From positions 64,001-128,000 of the forward strand of contig JAZSKX010000015.1 of NCBI GenBank assembly GCA_045535075.1: a DNA stretch of 64,000 nucleotides, read 5' to 3'. A program made the translations under genes and the position numbers. The DNA is from Candidatus Spyradenecus sp. GTDB lineage: Bacteria > Verrucomicrobiota > Verrucomicrobiia > Opitutales > UBA953. The notes under the pieces are model-generated. The model saw nothing but the letters and a program-made list of their open reading frames with translations. It did not search any database and was not told the DNA's origin. Every line of letters starts with the position of its first letter. The stretch's first letter is position 1. Below are positions 1 through 62,754 of this stretch, one piece after another.

Positions 1-1061
1 ATAAGCTGGATTAATGCAAGTTCGCCGTACCACAAACCGTCTACGACAACCGGAAACGCTTTGTGAATATCCAGTCGCGCAATGGGATCTATCGTCCACT
101 TATCTTCCTGCCCTTTCCACTCGTCCTGCTTTCCTGAATCGTCTTGCGTTCCCGCGAGCAGTTGCCGCAAATTCGCTCCTTTTGCCTTTAAAAGAGCAAT
201 GAATTTCACGTATTGAAGATTTTTTTCGGCGGCTTTTTTCCCTGCATCGGCTTCGCTCAAAAGCGCATTATAAATCGCGGAAGCGGAATCAAGCCCGTCG
301 GGAACGTTGCGTTCGTCTTTTGTCGTTTTATAAAACGCGCAGGCTTTTTCGAATTCGTCCGAGTTAAAGTTTGAGCGGTCGCCGGCATCTTGAGGTTTTT
401 GAGAAAAAACACGTTCGCGGCTTTGGTAAGCGTCCGATTCATATTTTGTTTTTTCAAAAAGCGTATTTGCTCTCAGCAATTCGTCTGCATTCAGGCGCAA
501 TGCTTCATTAATATCGCTGAGATTCCCGTAGCGCGGGAGCGCATTTTCGTTTTCCTCGATTTCATATTGTCCGCGAAAATAACGCAGAGCCAAGGTCGCG
601 CAGTTTTCGCCGAATGTGTTCTCGTAATTCGGATTTGCGCCGAGATTCAGGAAAAATTCCGCGCGGGAACAATCGCCTGCGCGCGCCGCGCGTTCCAGCA
701 AATTATTTTTTTGGTGCTGAGCAAATTCGCCGCCGCTGTGCATGATGTAGGCGCAGAGCGGCTTGTCGTCGAACCAATGCCAGACCGACCACATCGCCGC
801 CGACCAACCGGACGGATCTTTCACATTCACGTTCCCGCCTTTTTTGACGCAGTCTTTGACGGTTGCCAAGTCCTTCGCGTGCGCCGCTTTGAGCAATTTC
901 AAATCCAATTCCTTTTGCTTGTCGACAGATGGCTTCGCTGCCGACTTTGCGACGGCGCGGCGCACGGGTTGCATTTGCGGTTTTTTTTGTACGCATCCCG
1001 TCGGGAACGCAAATACGCTCAGAGCGATTGCCGTGAAAATAATCGGGTTAAAAAATTTCAT
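1..1061 (-). CDS. Ankyrin-repeat lipoprotein, 3'-partial (runs off the left edge)
   Basis: Translated by hand; absent from the ORF track because no stop falls in the window. Starts MKFFNPIIFTAIALSVFAFPTGC (lipobox-like Cys), then ankyrin-like units LLKAAHAKDLATVKDCVKKGGNVNVKDPSGWSA and AEFFLNLGANPNYENTFGEN. Open to base 1. Confidence 0.75.
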   Translation of the reverse strand, partial: MKFFNPIIFTAIALSVFAFPTGCVQKKPQMQPVRRAVAKSAAKPSVDKQKELDLKLLKAAHAKDLATVKDCVKKGGNVNVKDPSGWSAAMWSVWHWFDDKPLCAYIMHSGGEFAQHQKNNLLERAARAGDCSRAEFFLNLGANPNYENTFGENCATLALRYFRGQYEIEENENALPRYGNLSDINEALRLNADELLRANTLFEKTKYESDAYQSRERVFSQKPQDAGDRSNFNSDEFEKACAFYKTTKDERNVPDGLDSASAIYNALLSEADAGKKAAEKNLQYVKFIALLKAKGANLRQLLAGTQDDSGKQDEWKGQEDKWTIDPIARLDIHKAFPVVVDGLWYGELALIQL

Positions 1062-1089
1062 GAATATAAATCCTTTCCTGATAAAATTA

Positions 1090-1755
1090 TTACTTTTTGA
1101 GGCGCGTGATGACTTCCCGCACAAACGGATTGCGTTTCCCTTCCGGAGTTTGCGCATACGTTTTTAGGCGATTCGCCAGCTCCGCATCCGTGCGGAAACG
1201 CTGAAGCGCAAGACGATTCCCCTGCGATGCCGCACGCAAAAGCCGCTGAAAATCATCGACCTGAACGGCAGGTTCTTCCGCCTCAACCTCGTCAGCCTCT
1301 TCAATTTCTGCGGGAACGGATTGTTTGGGCGTAGCCGCTTCCGGCTCGGCTTTCGAAGCACCGAGAGAAAATGCCGGGAGAAAATTTCCGAACGGCGTCG
1401 ATGCTTTCGGCTCCTCTTTTGCTTGCTTCGGCGCAACTTTTTTCGGCTTCTCCGATTCCGATTTCCCGCGTTCTTTTGCCTGTTTCGCCTGCAATGCCGC
1501 AAGAGCGTTTCCGCCGGACTTCGCGCTCATATTCGGGTCGGCGCGAAGCAGCCATTGCTCCGAAAGCAAATCATCTTTTACGACTTCGTTCCCGCTTGCA
1601 TAGCGCGCCGCCAGCTGCTTTTGAGCGTCGTCTTTTCCGCGATTTGCGTCGTGCGCGATTTCCTCGATTCCGGCAAATGCCGTTCCCGCAAAGCCTGCAA
1701 GCGCGGCAGTCAAAATCATTTTTCTTAATATTGTTTTATCGGAGGTCATAAGCAT
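1090..1755 (-). CDS. Secreted protein with a Sel1-like repeat
   Basis: Signal peptide (ILTAALAGFAGTAFA), Sel1-like DAQKQLAARYASGNEVVKDDLLSEQWLLRA, and a low-complexity K/E/P linker. Start could be 1718. Confidence 0.6.
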   Translation of the reverse strand: MLMTSDKTILRKMILTAALAGFAGTAFAGIEEIAHDANRGKDDAQKQLAARYASGNEVVKDDLLSEQWLLRADPNMSAKSGGNALAALQAKQAKERGKSESEKPKKVAPKQAKEEPKASTPFGNFLPAFSLGASKAEPEAATPKQSVPAEIEEADEVEAEEPAVQVDDFQRLLRAASQGNRLALQRFRTDAELANRLKTYAQTPEGKRNPFVREVITRLKK

Positions 1756-1773
1756 CTTTCATTTGGGTTAAAA

Positions 1774-2232
1774 TCATTCGTTCGCGGAGGATTTATTGCC
1801 TTCGGAAACATTCATTAAAACAACGTCTCCGTCGTAGAAGCGCATTTGTTTCTCGCCTTTTAAAAGCAACGGTACGCAGATATCGTCTTCGTTGAACGAT
1901 TCTCCCGCGCCGGCACGCGCATCAACCAGCATGCCGGGGACGAGTCCGGTAAAAATGTCGAGCACCAGCCAGCCGTTTATGCTTTTTTTCAATTTTACGC
2001 GTGTGTCGGCGTAACCTTCTTTTTTCAGAACGACGTACGGTTCCGTGTCTTGGTCTAAATCAATTTCGCACGGTGTCGTTCCCGCCAAATCGCCGTTGAC
2101 ATAGACGCTTGCGCCGGACGGTTTCGAGTCGATTTCCACTTCCTGAAACGTTCCCGTCATAATTGTCGCGCAAGCGCTTTGAAGCAAGGCTGCAAGCAAC
2201 AGAGGAATGAGCATTAAAGAATTTTTTTTCAT
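1774..2232 (-). CDS. PEGA-domain lipoprotein
   Basis: MKKNSLMLIPLLLAALLQSAC lipobox; PEGA pattern IDSKPSGASVYVNGDLAGTTP...LKKEGY. Confidence 0.75.
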   Translation of the reverse strand: MKKNSLMLIPLLLAALLQSACATIMTGTFQEVEIDSKPSGASVYVNGDLAGTTPCEIDLDQDTEPYVVLKKEGYADTRVKLKKSINGWLVLDIFTGLVPGMLVDARAGAGESFNEDDICVPLLLKGEKQMRFYDGDVVLMNVSEGNKSSANE

Positions 2233-2246
2233 TGTTTGCCTTTCGT

Positions 2247-3026
2247 TTAATCTTCGTATTTTACGGGAACGGAAAGCGTCAGCGGGCAAACCGATCTCAA
2301 TTCTTCCGGAAGAACAAATTTCGACTTCATTTTTTGAAATATCTTGCGAGCGCCGTTGTTTACTTCCGAAGCTCCTTCATGTCGCGTCGCTTCGAAATCG
2401 AGAATCGTCCCGTCGTCGGAAATCGTTACGTCTGTCCAAGCCGTTCCCGTCGCGCGATGGCGTCCGGCAATCTTGCCGTGCGTATCACGCACAAATACCC
2501 AAAGCGGCTCGATATATTTTTCGATTTCCAGGATAAGCGTTTCGCGAATTGCATTTTCTAAGGCCTTCATCTCCTTTGACGGATTCAGATTCGACACTTT
2601 CACGTTTCCTTTGTAATAAACGTTTTGAAGCGAATCCTTCGTCAGCACGGGAACGACAATGTAATTTTCCGTGTATTCCCGCGTCGCGCCGCTCCGTGTG
2701 TCGAGAATCCATCCCACCGGTGCAAACGGGAGAAAGAACGTGTTGAGCATCGTGGTGCCGTTCCACTCGTCTTTGATTTGCACACGCGTGTCGGCGTAAC
2801 CGTCTTTTTTCAAAACAATCAGCGGGTGCGAGTCGCGGTTCATGTCAAGTTTCACCGGAGTTCTTCCGACGTATTCACCGTTTGCATACAGCGAAGCGCC
2901 TTGGGGGAACGACGCGATTTCAATTTCTTCTTCCGTTCCGCAGAACATCGTTGCACAGCCGCTCAGCGTTCCCGCAAGTGACAACACAGGCACAACCCGG
3001 AGCGTTTTTTTCAGTAAGTTTTTCAT
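2247..3026 (-). CDS. PEGA-domain lipoprotein with a C-terminal extension (possibly TonB-C/TolA-like)
   Basis: LSGC lipobox; IASFPQGASLYANGEYVGRTP...LKKDGYADTRV; paralog of 1774-2232. C-terminal domain assignment is tentative. Confidence 0.7.
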   Translation of the reverse strand: MKNLLKKTLRVVPVLSLAGTLSGCATMFCGTEEEIEIASFPQGASLYANGEYVGRTPVKLDMNRDSHPLIVLKKDGYADTRVQIKDEWNGTTMLNTFFLPFAPVGWILDTRSGATREYTENYIVVPVLTKDSLQNVYYKGNVKVSNLNPSKEMKALENAIRETLILEIEKYIEPLWVFVRDTHGKIAGRHRATGTAWTDVTISDDGTILDFEATRHEGASEVNNGARKIFQKMKSKFVLPEELRSVCPLTLSVPVKYED

Positions 3027-3037
3027 AAGCAAAAAAA

Positions 3038-3730
3038 TCAGAATGAAACGTTGTAGCCCACGGAGAAAAGAATCCACTTGGGATTAGATACAGAAAATCC
3101 TTCGTCGTCGTGGTTGCTCGAGCACATCAGGTAGTCTGCTCCGAAACGGATAGCGTCTCCGCGATTTCCAAGGTGAATTAAAACGCCTGCACCAACACCG
3201 TAAGTCACAGTAGAACTTGCCTTATGCTCGCTAAGAAGTATCCCCCCGCCCAAGCGAACTCCGCCAAAAACGGAAACAGAGTCTGAAAGCGGCATATGCA
3301 TATTTCCTCCTGCTGTACACGAAAGCAGTGTAAGTTGTTCGTCAACGTCCTCTTGTGTCGAGCCCGTCATAAATCCGAGAAGAAGGTACACTTCCGGTGT
3401 GAACATGGAATCTTCGTCCGATGAATTTTTCAGCCAATTCAATCGAAAGTTAAATCCGTAAAAATTTTCGAAATCCGTCTTCTTGCGAACGTATTCTCCC
3501 CGCCACCAGTAGTATTCGTCTCGAATATAAGCATCTCCGTAGCCGGACATTTTAGCTTTTCCAAAAACGCCTTCGATTCCGACGGAAAATTCCCATTCGG
3601 ATTCTTCCTGAACTTCCGGGAGGTCGTTTATTTCAAATTCGTCGTAAGAAAATTCGTTCTCGAAAGCAAATGCGGGAACGAGCGTGAGAAGCGGGAACGC
3701 CAAAGCGCCTAAGCATATTTGTGTCTTCAT
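3038..3730 (-). CDS. Outer-membrane beta-barrel protein
   Basis: Signal peptide, amphipathic beta strands, terminal aromatic motif VGYNVSF. Confidence 0.7.
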   Translation of the reverse strand: MKTQICLGALAFPLLTLVPAFAFENEFSYDEFEINDLPEVQEESEWEFSVGIEGVFGKAKMSGYGDAYIRDEYYWWRGEYVRKKTDFENFYGFNFRLNWLKNSSDEDSMFTPEVYLLLGFMTGSTQEDVDEQLTLLSCTAGGNMHMPLSDSVSVFGGVRLGGGILLSEHKASSTVTYGVGAGVLIHLGNRGDAIRFGADYLMCSSNHDDEGFSVSNPKWILFSVGYNVSF

Positions 3731-3911
3731 AGTTTTAGGTTAGATGGGGGTTAAACGAGTTTTCATTTTACCCCCCCTAAAAGTTGTCAAGATGTTTTCG
3801 GAGCGCATTTTGAGGCGGTTTTACGTTTTCGCGGGGCGTTGTAATTTCGGATTAAGAATCACAAAGCTTTAAAGTCGCAAAGATTCGGATTCCCGGCGGG
3901 AACGCAATTTT

Positions 3912-4613
3912 TTAGAAGCTAATCGTGAATCCGAGCGAGTAAACGGTGTATGTTTGACTGCCGAGATAGATTCCGTCGACTTCCGGGGCCGCTTCAGTGC
4001 TCAAGCGCTCAACGCCGAAGTTCATCGCGAAATTTTCCGAAAAAGCGAGGCTACAGCCCATACCCCAGCCGTAAGTCAGTCCGAGATCGTATTCCTGATC
4101 TGTGTCGTGATTTCCGTAGTCAACAGAAAAGAGAATGGCTTCGCCTCCCATGCGTGCGCCGACATAGAGCGAAAACGCCGAGCCGATGTTGTAGCGCAAA
4201 TTCGCGCCCAGCGTGCACATGAAGTGGCGAACTTCGTATTCCAAAAAAGACTCTTCGTATCCGTAGTTGACCTTGTAAACATCTCCGCACCCGAATCCGA
4301 ATCCGCCGGAGATGAAGAATTCCGGAGAAAGCGTTTGAGGTTCATTGCTTGCGGGGATTTGGCGAATCGAATAACAGAGGTTTAGACCGTAAAAATCCGG
4401 ATCGTCCTTGAAGTAGCTGCCAGCTGATTCCGCGTAAAAAACCGACCCGCCGAATCCGGATAAATGCGTAGCCGGGGCGAATTCTTCCGGCGCGGTATTT
4501 TGCGTCAAGTCGGTTTCGTATTCGGTAAATCCGTCATAATATTCCTGCGCAAAAGCGCCTGCGGGAACGGCAAAAAGAAGAGCAAGGGTTGTGAAAAAAG
4601 AGGAGAATTTCAT
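3912..4613 (-). CDS. Outer-membrane beta-barrel protein
   Basis: Signal peptide AFA-Q; LGANLRYN..YVGARMG shared with neighbours; ends LGFTISF. Confidence 0.7.
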   Translation of the reverse strand: MKFSSFFTTLALLFAVPAGAFAQEYYDGFTEYETDLTQNTAPEEFAPATHLSGFGGSVFYAESAGSYFKDDPDFYGLNLCYSIRQIPASNEPQTLSPEFFISGGFGFGCGDVYKVNYGYEESFLEYEVRHFMCTLGANLRYNIGSAFSLYVGARMGGEAILFSVDYGNHDTDQEYDLGLTYGWGMGCSLAFSENFAMNFGVERLSTEAAPEVDGIYLGSQTYTVYSLGFTISF

Positions 4614-4664
4614 GGTGTTGGAGTTTTGGATTAAGGGGGTTATGCTTTTTTTGAGTTCGTAATT

Positions 4665-5153
4665 TTAGCGGGAACGGCGTTTGGTTGAGCTCGGACGTTT
4701 GGTAGGAGCTTGCTGTTTTTTCGGAGTGGCGCGCTCGGGAACGGTACGACGCGGAGTTTCTTCGTAAATGATTGCGCTTACGGATTCCGGAAGTTCCCAC
4801 ATGGCTCCGGTTGCGGGATCGACAATGACAAGCCCGATGAGTCCGCCGAAGATCGCGTTCCCGAAATACCACGGGTCAATCGAGCTATCAATCGTCAGCG
4901 TGTTGCCGGCGGCGAATTCGACCTTATAGGTTGCTCCGTCGAAAAAGCCGTCTCCGGCTTCCAACGGAATCGTCTGCGGCGTTTTGCCCGTAATAACTTT
5001 TTCGCCGTCTTCGTTTTTTACAACGAAACTTTTTCCGGGCGGAAAAGAGTCAATCATAACCGGATATATGCTTTCACTGACAATCGATGCGCAACCGGAG
5101 CTCGCAACAACAAAAGCGAGCATCGCGGGAACGAGGATGGGAGATTTTTTCAT
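4665..5153 (-). CDS. Lipoprotein related to the PEGA lipoproteins
   Basis: SSGC lipobox; IDPWYFGNAIFGGLIGLVIVDPATGAMW hairpin similar to the C-terminal part of the two PEGA lipoproteins. Confidence 0.7.
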   Translation of the reverse strand: MKKSPILVPAMLAFVVASSGCASIVSESIYPVMIDSFPPGKSFVVKNEDGEKVITGKTPQTIPLEAGDGFFDGATYKVEFAAGNTLTIDSSIDPWYFGNAIFGGLIGLVIVDPATGAMWELPESVSAIIYEETPRRTVPERATPKKQQAPTKRPSSTKRRSR

Positions 5154-5176
5154 GGTTGAGTCGCGTGGTTTTGGAA

Positions 5177-5962
5177 TTAGAACGTGTATTTGTAGCCGAG
5201 AGAGAACATGTTGAATTTCTGCTTTTCAACCGTGACATTTTCTCCTCCGTATGTGTTGATTTCGGATTCTGCCGTGCTTCCGACAAATGCGTATCCGAGC
5301 GTCATCGCATGATGTTCATTAAACTTCCATTGAATTCCGGCTCCGACCCCGTAAGCGAATCCGAAGCCTGCTTCCGAGTCGTAGTTAGCATCTTCAACGT
5401 AAAGCATGCTTCCGCCGATACGTGCTCCCGCATAAATGGAAAAATTATTGCTGATGTGCCAACGGATGTTGGCTCCGAGTGAAGTTTCTACAAACCAAAC
5501 GCCGTATTCGCTCCAATAACCTCTCCAGCCGCTACTTCCGGAATATTCGCCTTCCCCGTAAGAATAGCCGCTGAGCCAATACAAATCATAAGAGAAATTA
5601 TCGGAGAGTGAGCGTTCTATCCCAAATTTCAGATTAAATCCGATCATGTCGACAGACGTGTCGTAAAGCATGTCTTCTGTCGGCGATACGGAAGTAATCT
5701 CTGTTTCCATGTAAAACGGAAATTGAGAAATATTGCTGTCTTCATATTCGTACTCAAATTCATCCCAAATCGAGCTGTCGTATTGATATCGTTTGGGAGT
5801 TGCGTCGGGATTTTTGGGTTTTTGCCCGGGGAGCGAACCGAGCGATCCGCCCGTATTCAGCCAAAGGTTTTTGTTGATAGCTTCTTCGTCAAAAGCCCAA
5901 GCATTCAGAGTACCGCATGCGTGGACACAAACTGCGAGTGCTAGAATTTTTGCAAGTTTCAT
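5177..5962 (-). CDS. Outer-membrane beta-barrel protein
   Basis: MKLAKILALAVCVHACGTLNAWA signal; LGANIRWH..YAGARIGG; ends LGYKYTF. Confidence 0.72.
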   Translation of the reverse strand: MKLAKILALAVCVHACGTLNAWAFDEEAINKNLWLNTGGSLGSLPGQKPKNPDATPKRYQYDSSIWDEFEYEYEDSNISQFPFYMETEITSVSPTEDMLYDTSVDMIGFNLKFGIERSLSDNFSYDLYWLSGYSYGEGEYSGSSGWRGYWSEYGVWFVETSLGANIRWHISNNFSIYAGARIGGSMLYVEDANYDSEAGFGFAYGVGAGIQWKFNEHHAMTLGYAFVGSTAESEINTYGGENVTVEKQKFNMFSLGYKYTF

Positions 5963-6006
5963 AAGTGTCAGAGTTTTTTGGGGTAAAATACAAATCGTAT
6001 CTCTTT

Positions 6007-8736: not shown

Positions 8737-10275
8737 ATGGCTAAGAAAAAAGAAACCTCAGACGAACCTCTGGAAAAACAGCTTTGGAAAGCTGCCGATA
8801 AGTTGCGAAAAAACATCGATGCCGCAGAATACAAGCACGTTGTGCTCGGCCTCATTTTCCTGCGCTATATTTCCGTTTCGTTTGAGGCCCTGTATGCCAA
8901 GTTGCAGGCGGAAGTCGCAGAAGGGGCTGACCCGGAAGACCGTGAAGAATACAAAGCGGAAAACATTTTTTATGTTCCCTCCGTCGCTCGCTGGAGCAAT
9001 CTGGTCGCCAATGCCAAAGATCCGAAAATCGGAAAATTTATCGACGATGCGATGGATGCCATCGAGCGGGAAAACCCGATACTTAAAGGCGTTTTGCCCA
9101 AAGTGTTTGCGCGTCCGAATCTCGATCCCGCGAGCCTCGGCGAGTTGATCGACCTCATCGGCAACAGCACACTCAGTGCCGCCACCAACAGCGCAGACCT
9201 CCTCGGGCACGTATTCGAATATTTTTTGGGCGAATTCGCACTCGCCGAAGGCAAAAAAGGCGGGCAGTTCTATACGCCGAGAAGCGTCGTCGAACTTCTC
9301 GTTAAGATGCTTGAGCCGTACAAAGGGCGCGTTCTCGACCCGTGTTGCGGTTCCGGAGGAATGTTCGTTCAAAGCGAGAAATTCGTCACGGAGCATCGCG
9401 GTCGACTCAACGATATCTCCGTTTATGGGCAGGAAAGCAATCAGACGACTTGGCGCCTCTGCAAAATGAACCTCGCCATTCGCGGGATCGACGCTTCGCA
9501 GGTCGCGTGGAATACTGAAGGCTCTTTTCTGAACGACGCGCACCGCGACGTGAAAGTTGACTACGTTATCGCCAATCCTCCCTTTAATGACAGCGACTGG
9601 AGCGGAAATTCGCTCCGTTCCGACGGTCGTTGGAAATACGGCGTTCCTCCCGCCGGGAACGCGAACTTCGCGTGGATTCAGCACTTCATTTATCACTTGG
9701 CTCCGAACGGACAGGCCGGATTTGTTTTAGCAAAAGGCGCGATGACGTCCAAGAGCGGCGGCGAAGGCGAAATCCGAAAAGCCTTAGTCGATGCCGGCTT
9801 GGTGGATTGTATCGTAAACCTTCCCGCAAAGCTTTTTCTGAATACCCAAATTCCTGCTTCGCTCTGGTTCCTCAGCCGCAACCGCACTGCGACTGACCGT
9901 TTTCGGGAACGCAACGGAGAAATCCTTTTCATTGATGCCCGCAATCTGGGGCATCTCATCAATCGCCGCACGCGCGAATTCAGCCCGAAAGATATTGCCC
10001 GCATCGCCGATACTTACCACAGTTGGCGCAATAAGAACGGAACCTACGAAGACGTTCCCGGCTTCTGTGCTTCCGTTCCCGTAGCCCGTGTTGCCGAACT
10101 CGATTACGTCCTCACGCCCGGTCGTTACGTCGGGCTTCCCGAGGAGGAAGACGATTTCAACTTCGCCGAACGCTTTTCCGCGCTCAAAGCCGAGTTTGAA
10201 GAACAACTAAAGGAAGAAGCCCGCCTCAACAAGCTCATCTTGGAAAATCTGGCGACGATCAAAGTCGGAAAATAA
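8737..10275 (+). CDS. hsdM: Type I restriction-modification methyltransferase subunit
   Basis: LWKAADKLR N-terminus, GQFYTP, DPCCGSGG (motif I), ANPPF (motif IV). Confidence 0.96.
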   Translation: MAKKKETSDEPLEKQLWKAADKLRKNIDAAEYKHVVLGLIFLRYISVSFEALYAKLQAEVAEGADPEDREEYKAENIFYVPSVARWSNLVANAKDPKIGKFIDDAMDAIERENPILKGVLPKVFARPNLDPASLGELIDLIGNSTLSAATNSADLLGHVFEYFLGEFALAEGKKGGQFYTPRSVVELLVKMLEPYKGRVLDPCCGSGGMFVQSEKFVTEHRGRLNDISVYGQESNQTTWRLCKMNLAIRGIDASQVAWNTEGSFLNDAHRDVKVDYVIANPPFNDSDWSGNSLRSDGRWKYGVPPAGNANFAWIQHFIYHLAPNGQAGFVLAKGAMTSKSGGEGEIRKALVDAGLVDCIVNLPAKLFLNTQIPASLWFLSRNRTATDRFRERNGEILFIDARNLGHLINRRTREFSPKDIARIADTYHSWRNKNGTYEDVPGFCASVPVARVAELDYVLTPGRYVGLPEEEDDFNFAERFSALKAEFEEQLKEEARLNKLILENLATIKVGK

Positions 10276-10373
10276 TGGAATTTATCTCGGAACGCGGTAA
10301 TTACCAAGAGCAGGAATCGTATCGGAACTCCGTTCTGATACACGACGCCACGGTGGAATTCTCCGCCAAGTGA
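10275..10373 (+). pseudogene. Truncated N-terminal relic, possibly of a four-helix-bundle-suffix protein
   Basis: ATG overlaps the hsdM stop; MEFISERGNYQEQESYRNSVLIHDATVEFSAK* recalls the G(N/G)Y..L.SY....IYDATV.F N-terminus of that family (from memory). Confidence 0.4.
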
Positions 10374-10453
10374 AAGAAAATTGCCGACAACTTGAAATCC
10401 CGAGCAAAGAAATATTAAACTTTAGAACCATCTAACACTCTCCCCGAAACAAA

Positions 10454-11581
10454 ATGCCTAACGAATCAAAATCTTCGGAGCACTCCGAACCAATCCTCCA
10501 AAAGAAAATCGAGTGGAAAGAGTATAAGTTGGGGGAAGTCATTACCTTGCAGAGAGGGGTTGATTTGCCGAAAAATAAAATGGAGAAAGGTCGTTATCCT
10601 GTTGCAGGATCGAATGGAATTATTGGATATCACAATTGTCATACGACGAATGGTCCGGGGGTTACTATTGGTCGAAGCGGAAATATTGGTGCAGTACATT
10701 TCTATGAATCAGATTTTTGGGCACACAATACGTCCTTGTATGTAAAGGACTTTAAGGGGAACGACGAGAGGTATATCTATTATTTTCTAAAGACTATTGA
10801 CTTTTCACAGTTCAATACAGGAAGTGCGGTTCCCTCTCTGAATAGAAATCATCTACACGAATTGAGCGTCCGACTTCCACCTCTCTCGGAGCAAAAGCGG
10901 ATTGCGTCGATTCTTAGTTCTTTGGACGACAAAATCGACTTGTTCCACCGCCAAAACGTCACCCTCGAAGCCATGGCGGAAACCCTCTTCCGCCACCACT
11001 TCATCGAAAACCCCAATCCCAATTGGAAGGAAGTATCTTTAACAGAAATAGCGACGTTTACCAATGGGCTTGCATGCCAAAAATATCCGCCTAAAAATGA
11101 AGCCGAAAAACTTCCGGTTTTAAAAATTCGAGAATTGTCCAACGGAATCGGAAATGATTCGGATTGGGCGACAACGAATGTCGGGAGTGAATATGTCGTG
11201 CATGCCGGAGATGTAATTTTTGCATGGTCAGCTTCTTTGATGGTGAAGATTTGGGATGGAGAAGATTGTATTCTCAACCAACACCTTTTCAAAGTAACCT
11301 CCGAGAAATACCCGAAATGGTTTTATTATTTTTGGTGTAAACACCACCTCAACGAATTTATTTCTATTGCTCAAAGCCACGCAACCACAATGGGGCACAT
11401 TAAGCGAAAAGACTTGGATTCTGCGCGAGTGCTAGTTCCGTCAGATGATGAATTGCTTGGTTATAGCGACGAGATTTCTTTCCTCATACAAAAAATGGAA
11501 GTAAATAACAGAGCGATACTTCAACTCACTAATTTGAGAAGTATACTGCTTCAGACCTTTTTTAATAGAGAAAGGGAATAG
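10454..11581 (+). CDS. hsdS: Type I R-M specificity subunit
   Basis: Two TRDs, central conserved LPPLSEQKRIASILSSLDDKIDL; lower GC. Confidence 0.93.
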   Translation: MPNESKSSEHSEPILQKKIEWKEYKLGEVITLQRGVDLPKNKMEKGRYPVAGSNGIIGYHNCHTTNGPGVTIGRSGNIGAVHFYESDFWAHNTSLYVKDFKGNDERYIYYFLKTIDFSQFNTGSAVPSLNRNHLHELSVRLPPLSEQKRIASILSSLDDKIDLFHRQNVTLEAMAETLFRHHFIENPNPNWKEVSLTEIATFTNGLACQKYPPKNEAEKLPVLKIRELSNGIGNDSDWATTNVGSEYVVHAGDVIFAWSASLMVKIWDGEDCILNQHLFKVTSEKYPKWFYYFWCKHHLNEFISIAQSHATTMGHIKRKDLDSARVLVPSDDELLGYSDEISFLIQKMEVNNRAILQLTNLRSILLQTFFNRERE

Positions 11582-11583
11582 CG

Positions 11584-12234
11584 TTGGAAAAATTAAAGGA
11601 TAAAATATCTCGGTACGGGAGATGAAGCCCTATTAACGATTATATCAACCGAATACAGACACACTTAGATGATGACTTTTCAGTGTGTGTAGAGAATGCC
11701 AAAGCGTTACTTGAGACAATCGGAAAGGAAATATGTAAATCTAAAGGAAAACCACTAGGGAAATCACCTTCTATGAATAGTGTATTGAAGAATGCATTTT
11801 CGGCAATGGGGTACACGAATTCCGATATGATTACTCAGATTTCCTCTGCACTTGGGACGATTGGGCAGAAATTAGGTTCTCTGAGAAACGATGTGGGAAG
11901 TAGTTCCCATGGACGATCGTTAGAGGACTTGAAAAAAAGAAATGATATTGTTAACGAGACAACAAAATTATTTTTAATTGATAGTGTGGATTTGGTTGCA
12001 TGTTTTTTAATTGGGTTGTTTGAAGGGGAGCATATCGAGTCTTCTTCTGTTGAAGAAGTTGAATATAGTGCGTGCGAAGATTTTAACGCGTATTGGGACG
12101 ACCAATACGGAGAATTTTCAATGGGGGATTACTCGTACACGGCAAGTGAGATCTTGTACAGTGTAGACCCTCAAGCTTACAAAAGCGAATACAGTTCATA
12201 TCTAAATGAGGGTGAAGAGAACCTGGCTTATTGA
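11584..12234 (+). pseudogene. Abortive-infection (Abi C-terminal, HEPN-like) protein with an in-frame TGA at codon 14
   Basis: TTG at 11584 is in frame with ORF 11683-12234: LEKLKDKISRYGR*SPINDYINRIQ...ENAKALLETIGKEI...LRNDVGSSSHGR. Confidence 0.6.
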
Positions 12235-12246
12235 TCGTTCCTATCT

Positions 12247-13143: not shown

Positions 13144-13150
13144 TTTTCCT

Positions 13151-16372: not shown

Positions 16373-16412
16373 TAGTGTTCCCGTGAGTTTTCTGCGGGAA
16401 TTTGCGGAGGTT

Positions 16413-40573: not shown

Positions 40574-40868
40574 AGGAATTCCTACAAGTAGAGTTTTCGG
40601 GAGAGTAAAGAAGTCGTCGGTACCCGGTAATTGGGAATCGACGGCTTCTTTGCTTTCTTAAAAAGAAGCGTTCCCGCGGATCTCTCCACGGGAACGTAGT
40701 ATCTAACACTAACTCTATCTAACACTAACACATAAACAAATTTTTAAAACGTTCGTCTGAGCTTCTAAAAGTTTCAAACTAAGCGTTGTTTAATTTCCTA
40801 CTAATATAGTAGGAGAGTTGTAATTATGTCAAATAGTTTTTCGGTGTTTTTTATTTTTTTTTGAAATT

Positions 40869-42695: not shown

Positions 42696-42779
42696 AGTGA
42701 GGCGAAATTCTACGCGCGTTCCCGCGGGAACGCAAAGCGTTTGTTTTTGAATTTTTGGGGAGTCGGGGGAAGGGAATTT

Positions 42780-50821: not shown

Positions 50822-50858
50822 GAACCCGTTCCCGCAAAACGCGGGAACGGGTTCTTTT
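50822..50858. terminator. Terminator built from an inverted GCGGGAAC pair
   Basis: GAACCCGTTCCCGC-AAAAC-GCGGGAACGGGTTC-TTTT between convergent btuB and sod. Confidence 0.85.
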
Positions 50859-53948: not shown

Positions 53949-53988
53949 AAAAAACGTTCCCGTGAATTATTCCACGGGAACGTTTTTT
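53949..53988. terminator. Bidirectional terminator built from an inverted CGGGAAC pair
   Basis: AAAAAACGTTCCCGTG-AATTATTC-CACGGGAACGTTTTTT between convergent genes; a second hairpin lies at about 53901-53942. Confidence 0.85.
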
Positions 53989-54001: not shown

Positions 54002-56569
54002 TTATTCTTTAATGGAGATAGCCCATTCGACGTTGTTTTGTTCAACGGTGAGCGGGTTGAGCTTCCAGATGTCGTTGGCGTATTCCGAGATCGTGCGGTC
54101 GGAAGAGAACTTGCCGACGCGAGCCGTGTTGAGAATCGCCATTTTCGCCCATTTCGCCTTGTCTTGGAAGGCTTTGCCGACGCGTTCCTGGCATTCGACA
54201 TAGGAACGGTAGTCCGCGAGGACGAGGAACGGGTCGCCGCCTTCGAGAAGGCTACGAACGACCGGCGAAAGCGAGCCGGGCTGATTCGGCGTGAAGTAGT
54301 CGCCCGTGAGCCAGCCGAGAATCGCTTTGAGTTCTTCGTCGCGATTGTAGTAATCCCACGGATTGTAGCCGCGCTGACGGAGTTCTTTCACTTCTTCGAC
54401 GGTCAGACCGAAGATGAAGATATTGTCATCGCCGACTTCTTCGCCGATTTCGACGTTCGCGCCGTCGAGCGTGCCGATTGTGAGCGCACCGTTGAGCGCG
54501 AGCTTCATGTTACCCGTTCCCGAGGCTTCTTTGCCGGCGGTGGAAATCTGCTCCGAAAGATCCGCTGCGGGAATGATTTTTTCCGCGAGAGAAACGCGAT
54601 AGTCCGGAAGGAATGCCACCTTGATTTTACCGTTCACGCGCGGGTCGTTGTTGATTTTTTCGCCGACCGCATTGATGGCGTGAATGATGTGTTTCGCCAT
54701 GTCGTAGCCCGGAGCTGCTTTCGCACCGAAAACGAAGACGCGCGGCGTCATTTCGAACTTCGGATCGTTGAGCAGACGATAGTAAAGCGTCAGGATGTGA
54801 AGCAGGTTCAGGTGCTGACGTTTGTATTCGTGCAGGCGCTTGATTTGGACGTCGAAGAGCGCATCCGGGGAAACTTCGATATTGCAGAGTTTCTTGATGA
54901 TGCGTGCGAGTTCAACTTTGTTTTCGCGCTTGATATCCATATAACGTTGCTGGAATGCAACGTCGTCGGCGTATTTTTCGAGACCGCGGAGCAGGTCGAG
55001 ATCCTTCGGCCAATCTCCGGAGATTTTTTCGTTAATCAACGCGGAAAGCCCTTTGTTGCAGGAGAGCAGCCAACGGCGCGGCGTGATGCCGTTCGTCTTG
55101 TTGTTGAAGCGTTCCGGATACATTTCGTAGAAGTCGCGGAAAAGCGTTTGTTTGAGCAATTCCGTGTGGAGCGCGGCAACGCCGTTTGTCGAGTGGCTCG
55201 TGATAACGGCAAGGTAAGCCATGCGAACCTGCTTGACCGAACCTTCTTCGATAATGGAGAGCTGGCGTTTTTTGAATTCGTCGCCCGGCCATTTCTTGTC
55301 GACTTCGAGGAGGAAGCGGCGGTTGATTTCGTAGATAATCTGCAGGTGGCGCGGAAGAACTTTTTCGAACAGCGGAACGCTCCACTTTTCGAGTGCTTCC
55401 GGAAGCAGGGTGTGGTTCGTGTAGGCAAAAACTTTTGTAACCGTGTCCCAAGCTTTATCCCAAGAGAAACCTTCAACGTCCATGAGAAGGCGCATCAGTT
55501 CCGGAATCGCAATTGTCGGGTGCGTGTCGTTGAGCTGAATTGCCGCTTTTTCGACGAGCGTGTCGAGCGTGCCGTTTTCTTTCTTGTGGCGGCGGATGAT
55601 GTCTTGAAGCGAGCAGGAAACAAAGAAAATCTGCTGAACGAGACGAAGTTGACGACCGACAGCCGTTTTGTCGTTCGGGTAAAGCACTTTCGAAACGGTT
55701 TCGCTGTTGGCTTTTTCGCGAATTGCTTCGATGTAGCCGCCTTCGTTGAACTTGTGGAAATCGAATTCACGCGTGGCTTTGGCTTCCCAAAGACGGAGGA
55801 AGTTAATCGTTTTTGCCTTGTAGCCGACAATCGGAATGTCCCACGGAACGCCGATAATCGGAGTCGTGTTTACCCAACGCGGTTTGAGGTGCCCGTTTTC
55901 GTCATAAGAAAGTTCGACGTTCCCGTAAAGCGGAACTTCGACGCGACGTGTTGCGCGGCGGACGTGCCACGGATTGCCGGAGAAAAGCCAGTTGTCGGCG
56001 TTTTCAACCTGATAGCCGTTCGAGAACGTTTGGCGGAACAGACCGAATTCGTAATGAATCCCGTAGCCGATCGCCGGAAGGTCGAGCGTCGCAAGCGAGT
56101 CAAGGAAGCAAGCCGCAAGGCGGCCGAGACCGCCGTTCCCGAGGCCCATGTCCTTTTCTTCTTCGAGGACGGCTTCCGGGTCGACGCCGAGTTCTTTGAG
56201 CGCAGCCTGAGCCGTTTCAAGCAGTCCGGCACTGGAAAGATTGTTGCGAAGCAGGCGCCCCATCAAATATTCGACGGAGAGATAGTAGCAACGGCGCGTT
56301 TTTTCATTAACGTGAACCGATTGCGTATTGATAAAACGGTGGTGGATCAAGTCGCGGACGGCACAGCTCGTCGCGAAAAGCCAGTCGTGCGTTGTCGCTG
56401 TATTCTTATTGCAGGCGAGTGTGCAACGCAGGTGGTAGAGAATCCATTGCTTGAAGGAATCGACTTCCGATTGCGTCGGCGTAGGAATAACTTCCGTTTG
56501 AACGGGAGCGTCGGCGGCTTCGATTTTTAATTTGGAAACCGCTTTTTTGGTTTTAGTTGCTTTTGCCAT
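54002..56569 (-). CDS. glgP: Glycogen/starch phosphorylase
   Basis: [39 protein letters not shown]. Confidence 0.96.
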
Positions 56570-56721: not shown

Positions 56722-56752
56722 AACGTTCCCGCAGCTTTCCTGCGGGAACGTT
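56722..56752 (-). terminator. Terminator after rplT built from an inverted GCGGGAAC pair
   Basis: AACGTTCCCGCAG-CTTTC-CTGCGGGAACGTT with a flanking A-run. Confidence 0.8.
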
Positions 56753-56779: not shown

Positions 56780-57136
56780 TTATGCGATAGCGGCCTTTGC
56801 TTTTTCGACAATTGCGGCGAACGCAGCGGCGTCGTGGATGGCGAGTTCGCTGAGGTTCTTACGGTCGATGATGATTTCCGCTTTTTTCAAACCGGCAACC
56901 AAGCGGCTGTAGGTGATGCCGAGAGGACGGCAAGCCGCGTTGATGCGGACGATCCAAAGTTGGCGGAAGTCCTGCTTTTTGTGGCGGCGGTGAACATACG
57001 CATATTTCTGTGCGCGATTGACCGCATCGTTAGCGTGCGTATAAGCACGGGATTTCAACCCGAAGTAGCCTTTCGCTTTCTTCAAAACGCGTTTGCGGCG
57101 CGCGCGGGTTGCGGGAGAATTTGTTACACGTGACAT
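56780..57136 (-). CDS. rplT: 50S ribosomal protein L20
   Basis: RRKRVLKKAKGY, FRQLWIVRINAA, IDRKNLSELA. Confidence 0.96.
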   Translation of the reverse strand: MSRVTNSPATRARRKRVLKKAKGYFGLKSRAYTHANDAVNRAQKYAYVHRRHKKQDFRQLWIVRINAACRPLGITYSRLVAGLKKAEIIIDRKNLSELAIHDAAAFAAIVEKAKAAIA

Positions 57137-57423: not shown

Positions 57424-57573
57424 AAGAAGAATACCATGAAAACGATTTTGTTCGTGATTGTAAAGCGGTTTTTCGTGAATTCCGAAAGGCTGTTGTTTTA
57501 TTGCGGAAAATAAAATTTCGATTTTGCGTTCCCGCGGGAACGAAGATTAAACTGGCGGGAAAAATTTATTCCG

Positions 57574-58767
57574 ATGGACGCTGCAGAACAAATCGCACTT
57601 CTGAAACAACGCACCGAAGTTTTTCTCGGTGAAGAACAACTTATCGAACGCATCAAAGCGGGGAAAAAACTCCGCGTCAAACTCGGCGTCGATCCCACGC
57701 GCCCCGACCTCACCTTCGGGCACATGGTCGTTTTCAACAAACTGCGCCAGTTTCAGGATATGGGGCACCAGGCCGTGCTCGTCATCGGCGATTTCACGAC
57801 GCGCATCGGCGACCCGTCCGGCCGCAGCACCACGCGCCCAGTTTTGACCGAAGAAGAAATCGAGGAAAACGCCAAAACCTACCTCGAACAGGCGTTTAAA
57901 ATTCTCGATCCCGAAAAAACCGAAGTCCGCCGCAACAGCGAATGGTTCGGCAAATGGTCGATGATCGACACGCTCCAGCTCGCCCGCCAAATGACGGTGG
58001 CGCGCATGCTCGAACGCGACGATTTCGCCAAACGCTACGCCTCGAAAACGCCGATTTCCATCATCGAATTTCTTTATCCGCTCTTGCAGGGACGCGATTC
58101 CGTCGAGCTTCAAAGCGATGTCGAAATCGGCGGCACCGACCAGCTTTTTAACAATCTCGTCGGTCGCCAGCTCCAAAAAGAAGCGGGAATGCCCGAGCAA
58201 GCCGTGCTCACGATGCCGCTCCTCGTCGGCTTGGACGGCGAACGCAAAATGTCCAAAAGCTACGGCAACTACATCGCGCTGAACGATTCCGCGAAAGATA
58301 TGTTCGGCAAAATCATGAGCGTTCCCGACGCCACGATGTGGATTTACTACGAACTTCTTTTGGAAAAAACGCCCTCGGAAATCGCCGCCATGAAAAACGA
58401 GCATCCGATGGAAATGAAAAAACAACTCGCCGCCGCGCTCACCGCCAAATTCTACGGCGAAGAAGCCGGGCGCTACGAACGCGAACAGTTCGAAAACGTT
58501 TTCTCCAAAAAACAGGTGCGCGCCGATATTCCGGAATTTGCTTGGGACAAACTCGTTCCCGCGGGAACGCCCGACGCAAGCATCATCGATTTGCTCGCCG
58601 CAACGAAAATTTTCCCGAGCAAAAAGGAAATCCGCCGCCTCATCGAAGGCGGAGCCGTTAAAGTAAACGACGAAAAACTCTCCGACGTGAACGCGCGCCT
58701 CGCACGCGAAACCGCCGCGGGAACGGTTATTCAAGCCGGTAAACGCAATTTCGTGAAAATCGTTTAG
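57574..58767 (+). CDS. tyrS: Tyrosine--tRNA ligase
   Basis: KLGVDPTRPDLTFGH, GGTDQ, KMSKS, S4-like C-terminus. Confidence 0.96.
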   Translation: MDAAEQIALLKQRTEVFLGEEQLIERIKAGKKLRVKLGVDPTRPDLTFGHMVVFNKLRQFQDMGHQAVLVIGDFTTRIGDPSGRSTTRPVLTEEEIEENAKTYLEQAFKILDPEKTEVRRNSEWFGKWSMIDTLQLARQMTVARMLERDDFAKRYASKTPISIIEFLYPLLQGRDSVELQSDVEIGGTDQLFNNLVGRQLQKEAGMPEQAVLTMPLLVGLDGERKMSKSYGNYIALNDSAKDMFGKIMSVPDATMWIYYELLLEKTPSEIAAMKNEHPMEMKKQLAAALTAKFYGEEAGRYEREQFENVFSKKQVRADIPEFAWDKLVPAGTPDASIIDLLAATKIFPSKKEIRRLIEGGAVKVNDEKLSDVNARLARETAAGTVIQAGKRNFVKIV

Positions 58768-59822: not shown

Positions 59823-60013
59823 CGTTTCCCCGATAGAGTTTCGGGAATAGTGTAAATGTTGAGGCAATCGTGCAATGAAATAAGGAACCGCCGCAAATTC
59901 TTGCCTTTACGTACAAATCCGTAACCGCAAGGACGATGAGATTGTCGTTCCCGCAAAAAAAACGTTCCCGCGAGAAAATCTCACGGGAACACACGTCTCA
60001 AGCGTACAAAAAA

Positions 60014-60102: not shown

Positions 60103-60121
60103 CTTATTTTTTATTTTTTGC

Positions 60122-60850
60122 TTATTCCAAACCGAGAACGGCGTCCATCCCGTAAATTGCCGGCGTCTTGCCGACAACCCAGTTCGCTGCATGTACTGCG
60201 CCGTTTGCAAAAATCGCACGCGACTCCGCCTTGTGCGTGAGTTCGACGCGCTCGCCTTCTCCGGCGAAAATCACCGTATGATCGCCGACGACGCTTCCGC
60301 CGCGCAACGCGTGCACGCCGATTTCGTCGCGGGAACGCTCACCGACCAAGCCCGAGCGCCCGTGGCGTTCGACGGATTTATTCAAGCCGCGTGCGGCTTC
60401 GACGACGGCGAGCAGCTTTTCCGCCGTTCCCGAAGGCGCATCTTTTTTGTGACGGTGGTGCATTTCGACAACTTCAATTTCGAAGGACTCATCGAGTAAT
60501 TTCGCAGCTTTGCCGACGAGCCAATTCAGCACGTTTACGCCGACGGAATAATTTCCCGCCCAGACAATCGGAATTTTTTTTGCCGCAGCTTCGATGCGGG
60601 AACGTTCTTCCGCCGTGTGCCCGGTCGTGCCGATGACGAGCGGTTTTCCCGCTTCCGCGCAGGCTTCCGCGAGCGCCGGCGTTACTTCGTGAAAAGAAAA
60701 GTCAATCGCGACGTTGCAGGCGGCGACGGCTTCCGGCGTGAACGTTTCGCCTACATCGCATTTGGCGATAACTTCCGTTCCCGCCGCTTGTGCTGCTGCG
60801 AGAATTGCCTGTCCCATGCGTCCTTTGTAGCCGTTTAATAAAATTTTCAT
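60122..60850 (-). CDS. dapB: 4-hydroxy-tetrahydrodipicolinate reductase
   Basis: GYKGRMG, IGTTG, EMHHRHKKDAPSGTA. Confidence 0.95.
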   Translation of the reverse strand: MKILLNGYKGRMGQAILAAAQAAGTEVIAKCDVGETFTPEAVAACNVAIDFSFHEVTPALAEACAEAGKPLVIGTTGHTAEERSRIEAAAKKIPIVWAGNYSVGVNVLNWLVGKAAKLLDESFEIEVVEMHHRHKKDAPSGTAEKLLAVVEAARGLNKSVERHGRSGLVGERSRDEIGVHALRGGSVVGDHTVIFAGEGERVELTHKAESRAIFANGAVHAANWVVGKTPAIYGMDAVLGLE

Positions 60851-60906: not shown

Positions 60907-61839
60907 TTAGCTCGCGCTTTTCGGAAGAAAATAGCCGCGTTGTTTGTCGGAAATCGGCATTCCGAGCGTTTGCATCATAACAAGAAAGTCTTCCCAGACC
61001 ATGCGTTTGGATTTTACGGTCCCGTTGCGAAGCAGGTACGAAGGGTGGTAAGTCGGAATCACGGGAACGCCGTGAAACTCGAATTGCTTCCCGCGAATCG
61101 CGCCCATTTTGCGGTCCGGATCGTTTCCGAGCAAACCGTTAACCGCTGTCAACCCGAGCGCAACGATGACTTTCGGTTTAATGATTTCGATTTGGGCGAT
61201 GACGTAGGGCAGGCAGTACGCCATTTCTTCCGGCGTCGGCGGGCGATTGCCGACGAGCGTCGGCATTTCCGGACGCCATTTCATGATGTTGCCGATGTAA
61301 ACGTCCTTGCGGGAAAGTCCGGTCGCGGCGATGATCTTGTCGAGTAATTGGCCTGCCGGTCCGACAAACGGAATTCCTTGCGTTTCTTCTTCCGCGCCCG
61401 GCGCTTCGCCGCAGAAAAACACGGGAGAATCCGGATTCCCGTCGCCGAAAACAAGCTGTTTCCCCGCGTGTAAATGTTTTTTACATACGGAATCTGCCTG
61501 CATTTGCGCGGCAACGGAGGCGAGTTTTTCCGCTTTCGTTCCCGCGTCGGGAATTTTGACAATCGGCGGTTTCGGGAACGCCGGTGTTTTCGGTGTCGTT
61601 TTTTTCTCGACGGGAACGCTCGCTGAGGGAAACACACCGCGCGAGGGCGATGTTGCGCGCGGCGCTTTTCGCGTTTCCGGCGGCGGACTTGCGGGCGCTT
61701 CGGAAACTGCGGGAACGCCCGCTGACTTTACGGCATTACGCAGTTGCGCGAGCGATACGTCGTCTGCGACAACGCGCTCCAGACCTTCTTCTTTCAAGGC
61801 TTGAAGCGTGTCGAGCAGGATTTCGAGCGCGTCGCGCAT
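60907..61839 (-). CDS. Family 4 uracil-DNA glycosylase
   Basis: GEAPGAEE, PFVGPAG, NRPPTPEE, TYHPSYLLR. Confidence 0.9.
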   Translation of the reverse strand: MRDALEILLDTLQALKEEGLERVVADDVSLAQLRNAVKSAGVPAVSEAPASPPPETRKAPRATSPSRGVFPSASVPVEKKTTPKTPAFPKPPIVKIPDAGTKAEKLASVAAQMQADSVCKKHLHAGKQLVFGDGNPDSPVFFCGEAPGAEEETQGIPFVGPAGQLLDKIIAATGLSRKDVYIGNIMKWRPEMPTLVGNRPPTPEEMAYCLPYVIAQIEIIKPKVIVALGLTAVNGLLGNDPDRKMGAIRGKQFEFHGVPVIPTYHPSYLLRNGTVKSKRMVWEDFLVMMQTLGMPISDKQRGYFLPKSAS

Positions 61840-61860
61840 GGCGATTTTCGCTTGCGGAAA

Positions 61861-62289
61861 TTATTCCATCCCCGGGACGAATGCGAGCGTTTCGCCGTCC
61901 TGAAGATTGAGTGTGCGGTAGTAGCACGAGCGGCGCGGCAAGCCGTTTTGTCCCTTGGTGTGGCAAGCGCCTTTACCTGCCGGGCGGACAAGGTAGAGCA
62001 GGGAATTTTGTTCGCAATTGATGCGGACTTCGACGAGTTTCAGAAAATCGCCGGATGTTTTCCCTTTAATCCAAAGTTCATTGCGGGAAGTGCTCCAAAA
62101 CGTCGCCATGCCTTCCTTTAGCGCCGTTTCGAGCGCAAGTTTGTTCGCGTAAGCAACAATCAGCACTTCCTTTGTGTCGGCATCTTGTGCGACCACGGGA
62201 ACGACATCGGATTCGCATTGCGCCATGGCTTTGCGCAGTTTCGTGAAGTCAAAATCCAGCTTCAAACCTTCTTCAATTTCTTTACTCAT
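61861..62289 (-). CDS. hisI: Phosphoribosyl-AMP cyclohydrolase
   Basis: FWSTSRNELWIKGKTSG, NCEQNS, ACHT...SCYY. Confidence 0.92.
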   Translation of the reverse strand: MSKEIEEGLKLDFDFTKLRKAMAQCESDVVPVVAQDADTKEVLIVAYANKLALETALKEGMATFWSTSRNELWIKGKTSGDFLKLVEVRINCEQNSLLYLVRPAGKGACHTKGQNGLPRRSCYYRTLNLQDGETLAFVPGME

Positions 62290-62444
62290 AGTGGCGCAAG
62301 ATTCTGCCTCTCCGGCGGGAATTTGGCAAAAGAATTTGTGAACTCTCGATCTTTCGCGTTCCGGATTTCGCGATTTTTTTCGTTCCCGCGTGATTTTTGA
62401 AATTTTTTCGCGAATGTAGAGTAAATGCACTCTCTAAAACACCG

Positions 62445-62689
62445 CTACACGGCAGATTTTTTATCTGCGTTTTTCGCCACGGGAACGCCCGGAGGCGCTT
62501 TGCGTGCGCGCGGTTTGAAGTCGTACGGGAGCTCGATTTTTCCTCCGCTTTGCTTGGCATCTTCCAAGAGCGATTTAATCGCCATGCGCACGATATCCGC
62601 CGCATTCAAATGCCAGCGCTCCGCCAACGCTTCCAGCGTTTTGCGGTCTTCGGGATCAAGGCGAATCCCATGGAAGGTTTAATGTTCAT
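62445..62689 (-). pseudogene. Ribbon-helix-helix protein with an apparent 1-nt frameshift near its start
   Basis: GIRLDPEDRKTLEALAERWHLNAADIVRMAIKSLL is preceded in frame by TAA; the upstream ATG AAC ATT AAA CCT TCC ATG is one base out of frame. Confidence 0.5.
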
Positions 62690-62754
62690 TGCACCCGCAA
62701 CGATGCGCTCCCGTAGCCATTCCCGCAAACAGAAGGGCGGGAACGCAATTGCTG

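Follow-up and report, generated by a model that had tools for sequence, protein, structure and literature searches.

Why does a single short DNA word recur, on both strands and both within and between genes, along a 64,000-nucleotide stretch of the genome of Candidatus Spyradenecus sp. (assembly GCA_045535075.1, contig JAZSKX010000015.1, positions 64,001 to 128,000; hereafter the window)? A preliminary description of the window had reported a 25- to 50-fold enrichment of the heptamer CGGGAAC/GTTCCCG and had suggested that it might be a signal for the uptake of self DNA, similar to the DNA uptake sequence (DUS) of Neisseriaceae and the uptake signal sequence (USS) of Pasteurellaceae. The by-eye counts given there prove to be exact: 22 copies in positions 1-6000 (13 forward, 9 reverse) and 19 copies in uvrA (16413-19241, minus strand; 8 forward, 11 reverse). 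Across the window the heptamer occurs 229 times, on both strands and in genes and spacers alike, from a first site at position 148 to a last site at position 62738; in 100 dinucleotide-preserving shuffles the mean is 13.8 (standard deviation 3.3, maximum 23), and none of the 100 reaches 229. Strong enrichment thus holds, at a magnitude of about 17-fold (16.6-fold) over the dinucleotide null rather than the 25- to 50-fold first estimated. In the window, 188 of the 229 heptamers extend to CGGGAACG and 107 of the 229 to GCGGGAACG.

In the genome assembly that holds the window (G000 below; 1.95 Mb in 18 contigs, GC content 0.52, completeness 99.45%), the most frequent 8-mer is CGGGAACG/CGTTCCCG, with 5159 copies, or one per 378 bp. 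The core CGGGAAC is present in 6528 copies, GCGGGAACG in 3244 copies, and the 10-mer GCGGGAACGC in 1614 copies, as compared with 8 copies of a reversed control; the 8-mer stands 19-fold above an order-2 Markov expectation that is itself inflated by the motif. An extended logo over all genomic copies of the heptamer, called for in the preliminary description, gives the consensus yGCGGGAACGc. In particular, C or T occupies position -2, G (0.62) or A (0.24) occupies position -1, and after the core come G (0.79) and C (0.46), in that order. Information is restricted to positions -3 to +8, with background further out and no conserved flanks; since nothing is conserved past about 10 bp, the element is a short word, about 10 bp long, rather than a longer repeat. 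CGGGAACG is asymmetric, and its positions are not equally strict: single-mismatch variants are scarce at positions 1, 2, 3, and 5 (26-266 copies each, vs 5159) and commoner at positions 4, 6, 7, and 8 (CGGGAGCG, 857 copies; CGGGAACA, 800 copies; CGGAAACG, 608 copies).

The word is written into coding sequence far beyond what proteins and codon usage require. Gene calling with a crude open-reading-frame and codon score, which misses some real genes, yielded 1344 genes comprising 83% of the genome. These contain 4134 of the 5159 copies of the 8-mer (80%), at a density of 2.56/kb as compared with 3.05/kb elsewhere, in agreement with the reported presence both in genes and between them. The enrichment survives the codon-preserving null that had been set as a check: in 20 replicates each, the coding count falls from 4134 to 444 ± 21 after a within-gene synonymous-codon shuffle, which preserves each protein and the codon usage of each gene (9.3-fold excess), and to 151 ± 9 after a codon-order shuffle (27-fold excess). 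All six register/orientation classes are occupied: in the sense orientation, 360 copies (RER), 1427 copies (A/T/S/P-G-T), and 691 copies (x-G-N-x); in the antisense orientation, 252 copies (RSR), 270 copies (x-F-P), and 1134 copies (x-V-P-A/V). Relative to the product of residue frequencies, the corresponding tripeptides are over-represented (AGT, 4.9-fold; VPA, 5.1-fold; RER, 3.7-fold; GNA, 2.3-fold), whereas the reversed tripeptides TGA, APV, and ANG stand at only 0.9-1.1-fold, and 1068 of the 1152 AGT tripeptides are written with the word. The gap between the synonymous and codon-order nulls shows that the protein sequences themselves are shifted toward the word.

Comparison of aligned uvrA genes reveals that the word is under DNA-level constraint at silent positions. 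The window uvrA shares 13-14 of its 19 sites with relatives at 83% protein identity and 8-9 with relatives at 66% identity. When codons with the same amino acid in both sequences are compared, third positions inside the window sites are identical in 35 of 35 cases for locus L013, 32 of 35 for L012, 20 of 23 for L014, and 18 of 22 for L015, as compared with a third-position identity of 0.46-0.65 outside the sites (46% for L014, 65% for L013). Motif-less outgroups exhibit no silent-site excess (0.30-0.54 inside vs 0.40-0.55 outside).

The comparison of relatives that had been proposed shows, in addition, that the word is limited to one genus-level clade of gut Opitutales. The relatives of the window UvrA, annotated as Opitutales bacterium, Candidatus Spyradosoma, and Candidatus Spyradenecus, come from ruminant, chicken, and other guts, mainly as metagenome assemblies, and assign the genome to gut Opitutales (Verrucomicrobiota). 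Of 76 uvrA loci, 17 have the word as their most frequent 8-mer, at 0.7-5.3/kb, over a GC range of 0.48-0.69 and down to a UvrA identity of 65%; in the remaining 59 it does not exceed 0.33/kb. When 201 genomes that sample the order evenly are counted, the 10-mer is present in 1614-3301 copies in the eight genomes of the genus of the window (g1) and in at most 66 copies in the other 193, where its count is no higher than that of the reversed control. In a family set of 121 genomes, it is present in 138-3301 copies in all 19 g1 genomes and in at most 64 copies in all 102 genomes of four sister genera; the motif is thus clade-specific (19 of 19 g1 genomes, none of 102 sister-genus genomes). Among the relatives compared no motif dialects were seen, the same word being used across the clade. 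Among the papers listed by literature searches, supplements aside, those matching the word were unrelated and primer-related, none connected uptake sequences or natural transformation with Verrucomicrobia or Opitutales, and none on the Candidatus genera, as judged by title or abstract, dealt with motifs.

Within the clade, the word has eroded in four g1 genomes, which contain 5- to 20-fold fewer 10-mers (G226, G241, and G243, 318-341 copies; G247, 138 copies). The uvrA-locus counterparts of the motif-depleted genomes (L004, L005, and L049) have lost sites that deeper branches retain, and exhibit no silent-site excess (0.67-0.74 inside vs 0.65-0.70 outside). No replacement word was found in sampled sequence from G226 (112 kb) or G247 (64 kb); these samples hold a remnant of the same word, at 0.36-0.61/kb, as compared with 4.3/kb in G176 and 0.05/kb in the sister-genus genome G030. 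G247 is a lineage separate from G226, G241, and G243, as judged by ComEC and pilin identity, so that erosion probably happened twice.

A few loci show patterns of their own. L016 (7.4 kb; UvrA 72% identical) is without the word, though its UvrA is nearer to that of the window than are those of the motif-rich L014 and L015; the locus comes either from a sister genus whose UvrA evolves slowly or from a lineage in which erosion is complete. In L022, L024, and L073 (Opitutales, UvrA 54% identical), TTGCCGAAA/TTTCGGCAA tops the 9-mer lists, with 13-15 copies per about 22 kb, a modest enrichment that might reflect coding bias or a weaker word of the sister group. The k-mer lists of L167-L172 (the G247 sample) and of L016 are dominated by CCACCAACCC-type and ACCACTAACC-type repeat runs, which probably represent tandem repeats within a single gene or spacer.

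Along the genome, the heptamer is spaced near-exponentially (mean 295 bp, coefficient of variation 1.09), with an excess of long gaps (28 longer than 2 kb, vs 7.5 expected); 8 of the 11 deserts longer than 3 kb, of which one falls within the window, lie at a GC content of 0.40-0.46. The claim that the word saturates the core genome holds across the window with one exception, a low-GC type I restriction-modification island. This comprises hsdM (8737-10275), located just upstream of the motif-poor stretch, open reading frames at 10454-13143, and hsdR (13151-16372). The motif-poor stretch (10082-16376) contains 4 copies, or 0.64/kb, at a GC content of 0.46, as compared with 3.5 and 4.0/kb in its flanks. 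This GC content and the near-absence of the word suggest that the restriction island (8737-16372) is probably a recent acquisition. At the other extreme, the window uvrA (6.7/kb) is the densest, genome-wide, of all called genes that reach 1.5 kb (308 genes), LigA ranking 2, RecN 7, HrpB 14, and Uup 19; a second UvrA-family paralogue of 941 residues (G000:C5:156578-159406) ranks 17, and the remaining genes of the top 20 are metabolic or without assignment. DNA-repair genes thus rank high in word density, a pattern that is suggestive only, as the top 20 and not all 308 were classified. Davidsen and colleagues reportedly described, in 2004, a bias of uptake sequences toward genome-maintenance genes. 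According to Findlay and Redfield (PMC2817400), the density of uptake sequences correlates only poorly with functional category.

The word also forms inverted pairs. The arrangement GTTCCCG-N-CGGGAAC shows a sharp short-range excess with a peak at N = 12 (58 cases). Of 170 pairs with a spacer of 6-16 nucleotides, 147 are intergenic (60 convergent, 85 tandem, and 2 divergent), nearly all of them at gene 3' ends, and in most of the 60 pairs inspected an A-run and a T-run flank the stem (aaaaaGCGTTCCCGyG...CrCGGGAACGCttttt). As judged from this layout, the intergenic pairs are predicted to be intrinsic, often bidirectional, terminators. Pairs of USS and DUS are described as serving likewise in Pasteurellaceae and Neisseria (Kingsford et al., PMC1852404).

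What maintains the word? The reading that we rate best, and to which we give about an even chance of being correct, is that CGGGAACG (yGCGGGAACGc) is a DNA uptake sequence that evolved independently in a single genus-level clade of gut Opitutales. We know of only two hyper-abundant words of such a sort with an established function, and both are uptake signals. The word here exhibits every testable sequence-level property of DUS and USS and lacks the defining properties of Chi and of KOPS (FtsK-orienting polar sequences), of repetitive extragenic palindromic (REP)-type repeats, and of palindromes of the type of HIP1 (highly iterated palindrome 1). The rating rests on these properties, on the function of the known analogues, and on the emerging tie of HIP1 to transformation. 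In such a system, a surface or periplasmic part of the type IV pilus/ComEC machine would bind the word preferentially; uptake and recombination would thereby favour DNA of the same clade over foreign DNA; and each point mutation that creates the word would be over-transmitted, a molecular drive through recombination. The word would build up wherever coding allows, bending codon choice and even amino-acid sequence; inverted pairs would be recruited as terminator stems; newly acquired islands would be without the word; and the word would decay in lineages where the bias had lapsed.

The likeness to the two known systems is close. The DUS of Neisseriaceae, which is bound by the minor pilin ComP, is likewise short and non-palindromic, is present in thousands of copies on both strands and in genes and spacers, forms terminator pairs, is clade-specific and sparse in acquired DNA, and has few strict core positions. 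It differs in its sequence, its phylum (Verrucomicrobiota here), its length (10-12 bp, vs an 8-bp core here), and its dialects, of which none was seen here; moreover, 80% of copies are genic here, as compared with 34.5% in N. meningitidis (PMC2817400). The USS of Pasteurellaceae likewise has a strict core with weaker neighbours, is mostly genic (65% in H. influenzae), leaves a tripeptide imprint, forms terminator pairs, and is absent from genes without homologues in relatives, as the word here is sparse in islands. The USS has AT-rich flanking segments, whereas the flanks here carry no information. Findlay and Redfield (PMC2817400) describe USS and DUS as roughly doubling the tripeptides they encode; the imprint is about 5-fold here, vs about 2-fold for the USS.

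A core of competence genes is encoded. The preliminary description had seen no competence genes in the window and had proposed a wider search, which found ComEC, DprA, a secretin, PilB/PilT, and prepilins elsewhere in the genome. Specifically, the ComEC-family channel (about 570 residues) has the Competence domain, with no beta-lactamase domain seen; a pilM-like operon that lies about 50 kb upstream, on the contig of the window, encodes a secretin of 984 residues; two PilB-like ATPases and one PilT-like ATPase (three T2SSE ATPases) lie in one cluster with a PilC-like gene; and four of the seven prepilins lie in one operon.

Several points, however, weigh against an uptake function and hold our confidence down. 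The ComEC and DprA searches also match in 10-11 of 14 control genomes, and both genes are frequent among bacteria for which no competence is known; the competence genes therefore allow an uptake function and do not prove it. No ComEA passed the family cut-off in the genome, unlike in the USS system, the best helix-hairpin-helix match being a Tex-like frame of 805 residues, and no ComP-type domain, the receptor of the DUS, was found in the seven prepilins (Pfam: N_methyl only, plus sub-threshold T2SSG and PT-TG). In a test of receptor candidates that covered five of the seven prepilins and left out those of 246 and 249 residues, four (228, 345, 236, and 221 residues) were rejected, as they have orthologues in motif-less sister genera. 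An orphan pilin of 141 residues (G000:C5:99026-99451) has full-length orthologues (46-91% identity) in all 19 g1 genomes and none at E <= 1e-10 in the other 102 family genomes; with a profile search, distant relatives that match over the full length appear in a few families elsewhere in the order. Its predicted model (pLDDT, a per-residue confidence score, 84.8) has a pilin fold, with FimU as the best, weak, solved match (E 0.023, TM-score 0.32). Its globular part is acidic to neutral (isoelectric point 5.0-6.8 in 11 of 12 orthologues) and without cysteines, and in this it is unlike basic DNA-binding pilins. As co-occurrence within one clade is a single event, the 141-residue pilin is a weak lead as a putative receptor, and it may simply be the major pilin of the clade. 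The eroded lineages point the same way: ComEC (5 of 5), PilT (19 of 19), DprA (19 of 19), and the 141-residue pilin (19 of 19) are intact, eroded lineages included, so that the erosion cannot be put down to loss of a known competence gene. A drive model must also account for a density about 3-fold that of the known words (1471 USS in H. influenzae and 1892 DUS in N. meningitidis; PMC2817400), and any other process favouring the word across the genome would leave all the same sequence hallmarks. The uptake signal first suggested is thus upheld by the sequence-level tests and by the core competence kit, and is not upheld by the search for ComEA, by the search for a ComP-like domain, or by the state of the competence genes where the motif erodes.

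The missing ComEA and ComP and the intact competence genes of the eroded lineages, together with the top density in repair genes, fit a different reading, one that we consider possible though doubtful: the word would be the footprint of a new genome-wide process of Verrucomicrobiota that converts near-matches or protects word-bearing DNA, and not an uptake tag. Candidates are a motif-directed repair or gene-conversion drive and a self-marking code read by a clade-specific protein; such a process would have rewritten the usage of several tripeptides 5-fold and been switched off twice within the genus. A relative of this idea, and in our judgement an unlikely one, is that the word resembles HIP1 (GCGATCGC) and is kept by a methylation- or repair-coupled process (mismatch correction, gene conversion, or a methylation mark) with no role in uptake specificity. 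HIP1 is likewise a hyper-abundant octamer, with more than one copy per gene, in genes and spacers, under silent-site selection and restricted to clades. Long without a known function, it has lately been connected with the efficiency of transformation (bioRxiv 10.1101/2024.09.10.611283); in cyanobacteria it is tied to orphan methyltransferases (PMC5861425, PMC4390886). The lead of repair genes in the density ranking and erosion without loss of known competence genes would suit such a process, as would the ending of the word in AC, given that the genome encodes an MmeI-family enzyme. The word shares this ending with recognition sites of MmeI-type enzymes. HIP1, however, is palindromic, with GATC at its core and orphan methyltransferases that are cognate to it, whereas the word here is asymmetric, restriction targets are normally avoided rather than enriched, and the products of deamination show no selective depletion (TGGGAACG, 1.0-fold, and CGGGAATG, 2.9-fold, relative to expectation). 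Nor do the methyltransferases found in this genome, by a catalytic-motif pre-filter and Pfam scan that may miss atypical enzymes, include a clade-wide one that tracks the word. They comprise one C5 methylase, located inside a motif desert of GC content 0.40; one MmeI-family type IIL restriction-modification gene with all five MmeI domains (G000:C2:15704-18763), which adjoins a low-GC motif desert, is patchy (9 of 19 g1 genomes, 35-80% identity), and is missing from very motif-rich genomes such as G176; three HsdM, of which the one in the window, the only one placed, adjoins the motif-poor island; and two adjacent D12-class adenine methyltransferase frames, 47% identical (G000:C16:218552-220265), a class present in 3 of 19 g1 genomes. 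As each enzyme is patchy or island-borne, a methyltransferase link is rejected as far as tested, and with it a HIP1-type palindrome kept by a conserved orphan methyltransferase.

An array of sites bound by a clade-specific protein that acts on the chromosome as a whole (nucleoid organisation or compaction, or a self-mark in defence or recombination) would account for a sharp, strand-symmetric word of 8-10 bp whose strict positions 1, 2, 3, and 5 resemble a protein-DNA interface, for its near-absence from foreign islands, and for its silent-site conservation. No candidate protein has been identified, however, we know of no nucleoid protein that uses thousands of exact 8-mers, and such an array explains the 5-fold tripeptide distortion no better than drive does; we regard it as distinctly improbable. 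Still less can be said for a polar signal, either a recombination hotspot like Chi or a guide for an FtsK-type translocase like KOPS, to which we assign a very slight probability. Chi and KOPS/SRS (SpoIIIE recognition sequences) are likewise over-represented 8-mers, and, in 20-kb bins of the ten contigs longer than 40 kb of this draft assembly, with GC skew as a stand-in for replichores, strand bias correlates weakly with GC skew (r = 0.42). Those signals, however, are strongly co-oriented with replication and far rarer than one per 380 bp, whereas here the heptamer is strand-balanced, as first reported (3168 forward vs 3359 reverse genome-wide), with 2991 of 5642 copies (53%) on the G-rich strand and no polarity of the replichores. 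The residual bias follows gene orientation (r = 0.46), and the two most lopsided bins, which are the only strongly strand-skewed ones, are explained by two giant genes of 4790 and 4269 residues (G000:C5:125845-140217 and G000:C8:185333-198142), each of which holds 57 sense copies in the xGT register, with a further 12 and 7, respectively, in another. The xGT register is the commonest coding register, and the giant genes, which are adhesin-like, are rich in it, as would be expected if the word were a by-product of codon or peptide usage; the 9-fold excess over a shuffle that preserves protein and codon usage, the use of all six registers, the equal or higher density outside genes, and the unenriched reversed tripeptides leave that account almost no credence. 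The same applies to copies of a small mobile repeat, as nothing is conserved past about 10 bp; repeats of the REP or MITE (miniature inverted-repeat transposable element) type, which have longer units and conserved flanks and occur in spacers only, are ruled out by this and by the 4134 of 5159 copies in called genes.

If the word is a DNA uptake sequence, it would be the first uptake tag in the phylum. To our knowledge, sequence-specific DNA uptake has been established in only two proteobacterial families; the word would then add a third independent case, indicating that self-biased transformation evolves repeatedly, and would open a first way into the study of gene exchange among gut Verrucomicrobiota that have not been cultured. 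Its density is the highest yet seen for such words. The two lineages in which it decays are a natural experiment through which the gene responsible for its maintenance might be found, and adding the word to donor DNA might render these bacteria genetically tractable. The word is, in addition, a sharp marker by which these genomes can be binned and foreign DNA within them recognised.

Within the window, inverted pairs illustrate the predicted terminators. A GTTCCCG-N12-CGGGAAC pair at 53956-53981, flanked by an A-run and a T-run and located between convergent genes, forms a bidirectional terminator-like hairpin, and a pair at 50828-50848, with a T-run, likewise lies between convergent genes (end of a TonB-dependent receptor gene at 50807, end of a minus-strand gene at 50876). 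Three further pairs are terminator-like on the minus strand: 40670-40695, downstream of ilvD, followed by a T-run on that strand; 56725-56749, downstream of the gene at 56780-57136, with an A/T-run; and 59964-59990, downstream of the gene at 60122-60850, with a plus-strand A-run. A pair at 36992-37017, located 13 bp past the stop codon of a TrkH-like gene, has no clear T-run. In an abutting arrangement, the two copies form the palindromic pair GTTCCCGCGGGAAC (42718-42731), with the same layout at 57528-57541 and 58555-58568. Motif-saturated phages were sought with the terminator-pair pattern and rejected: the pattern matched 30 IMG/VR contigs, all with 0.2-0.8 copies/kb, a density that marks the matches as chance hairpins.

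Long open frames of 885 and 830 residues lie antisense to alaS (37571-40228, minus strand) and to the glycogen phosphorylase gene (54038-56530, plus strand), respectively; such lengths are unusual at a GC content of 0.52, and both are probably shadow frames that arise from codon bias.

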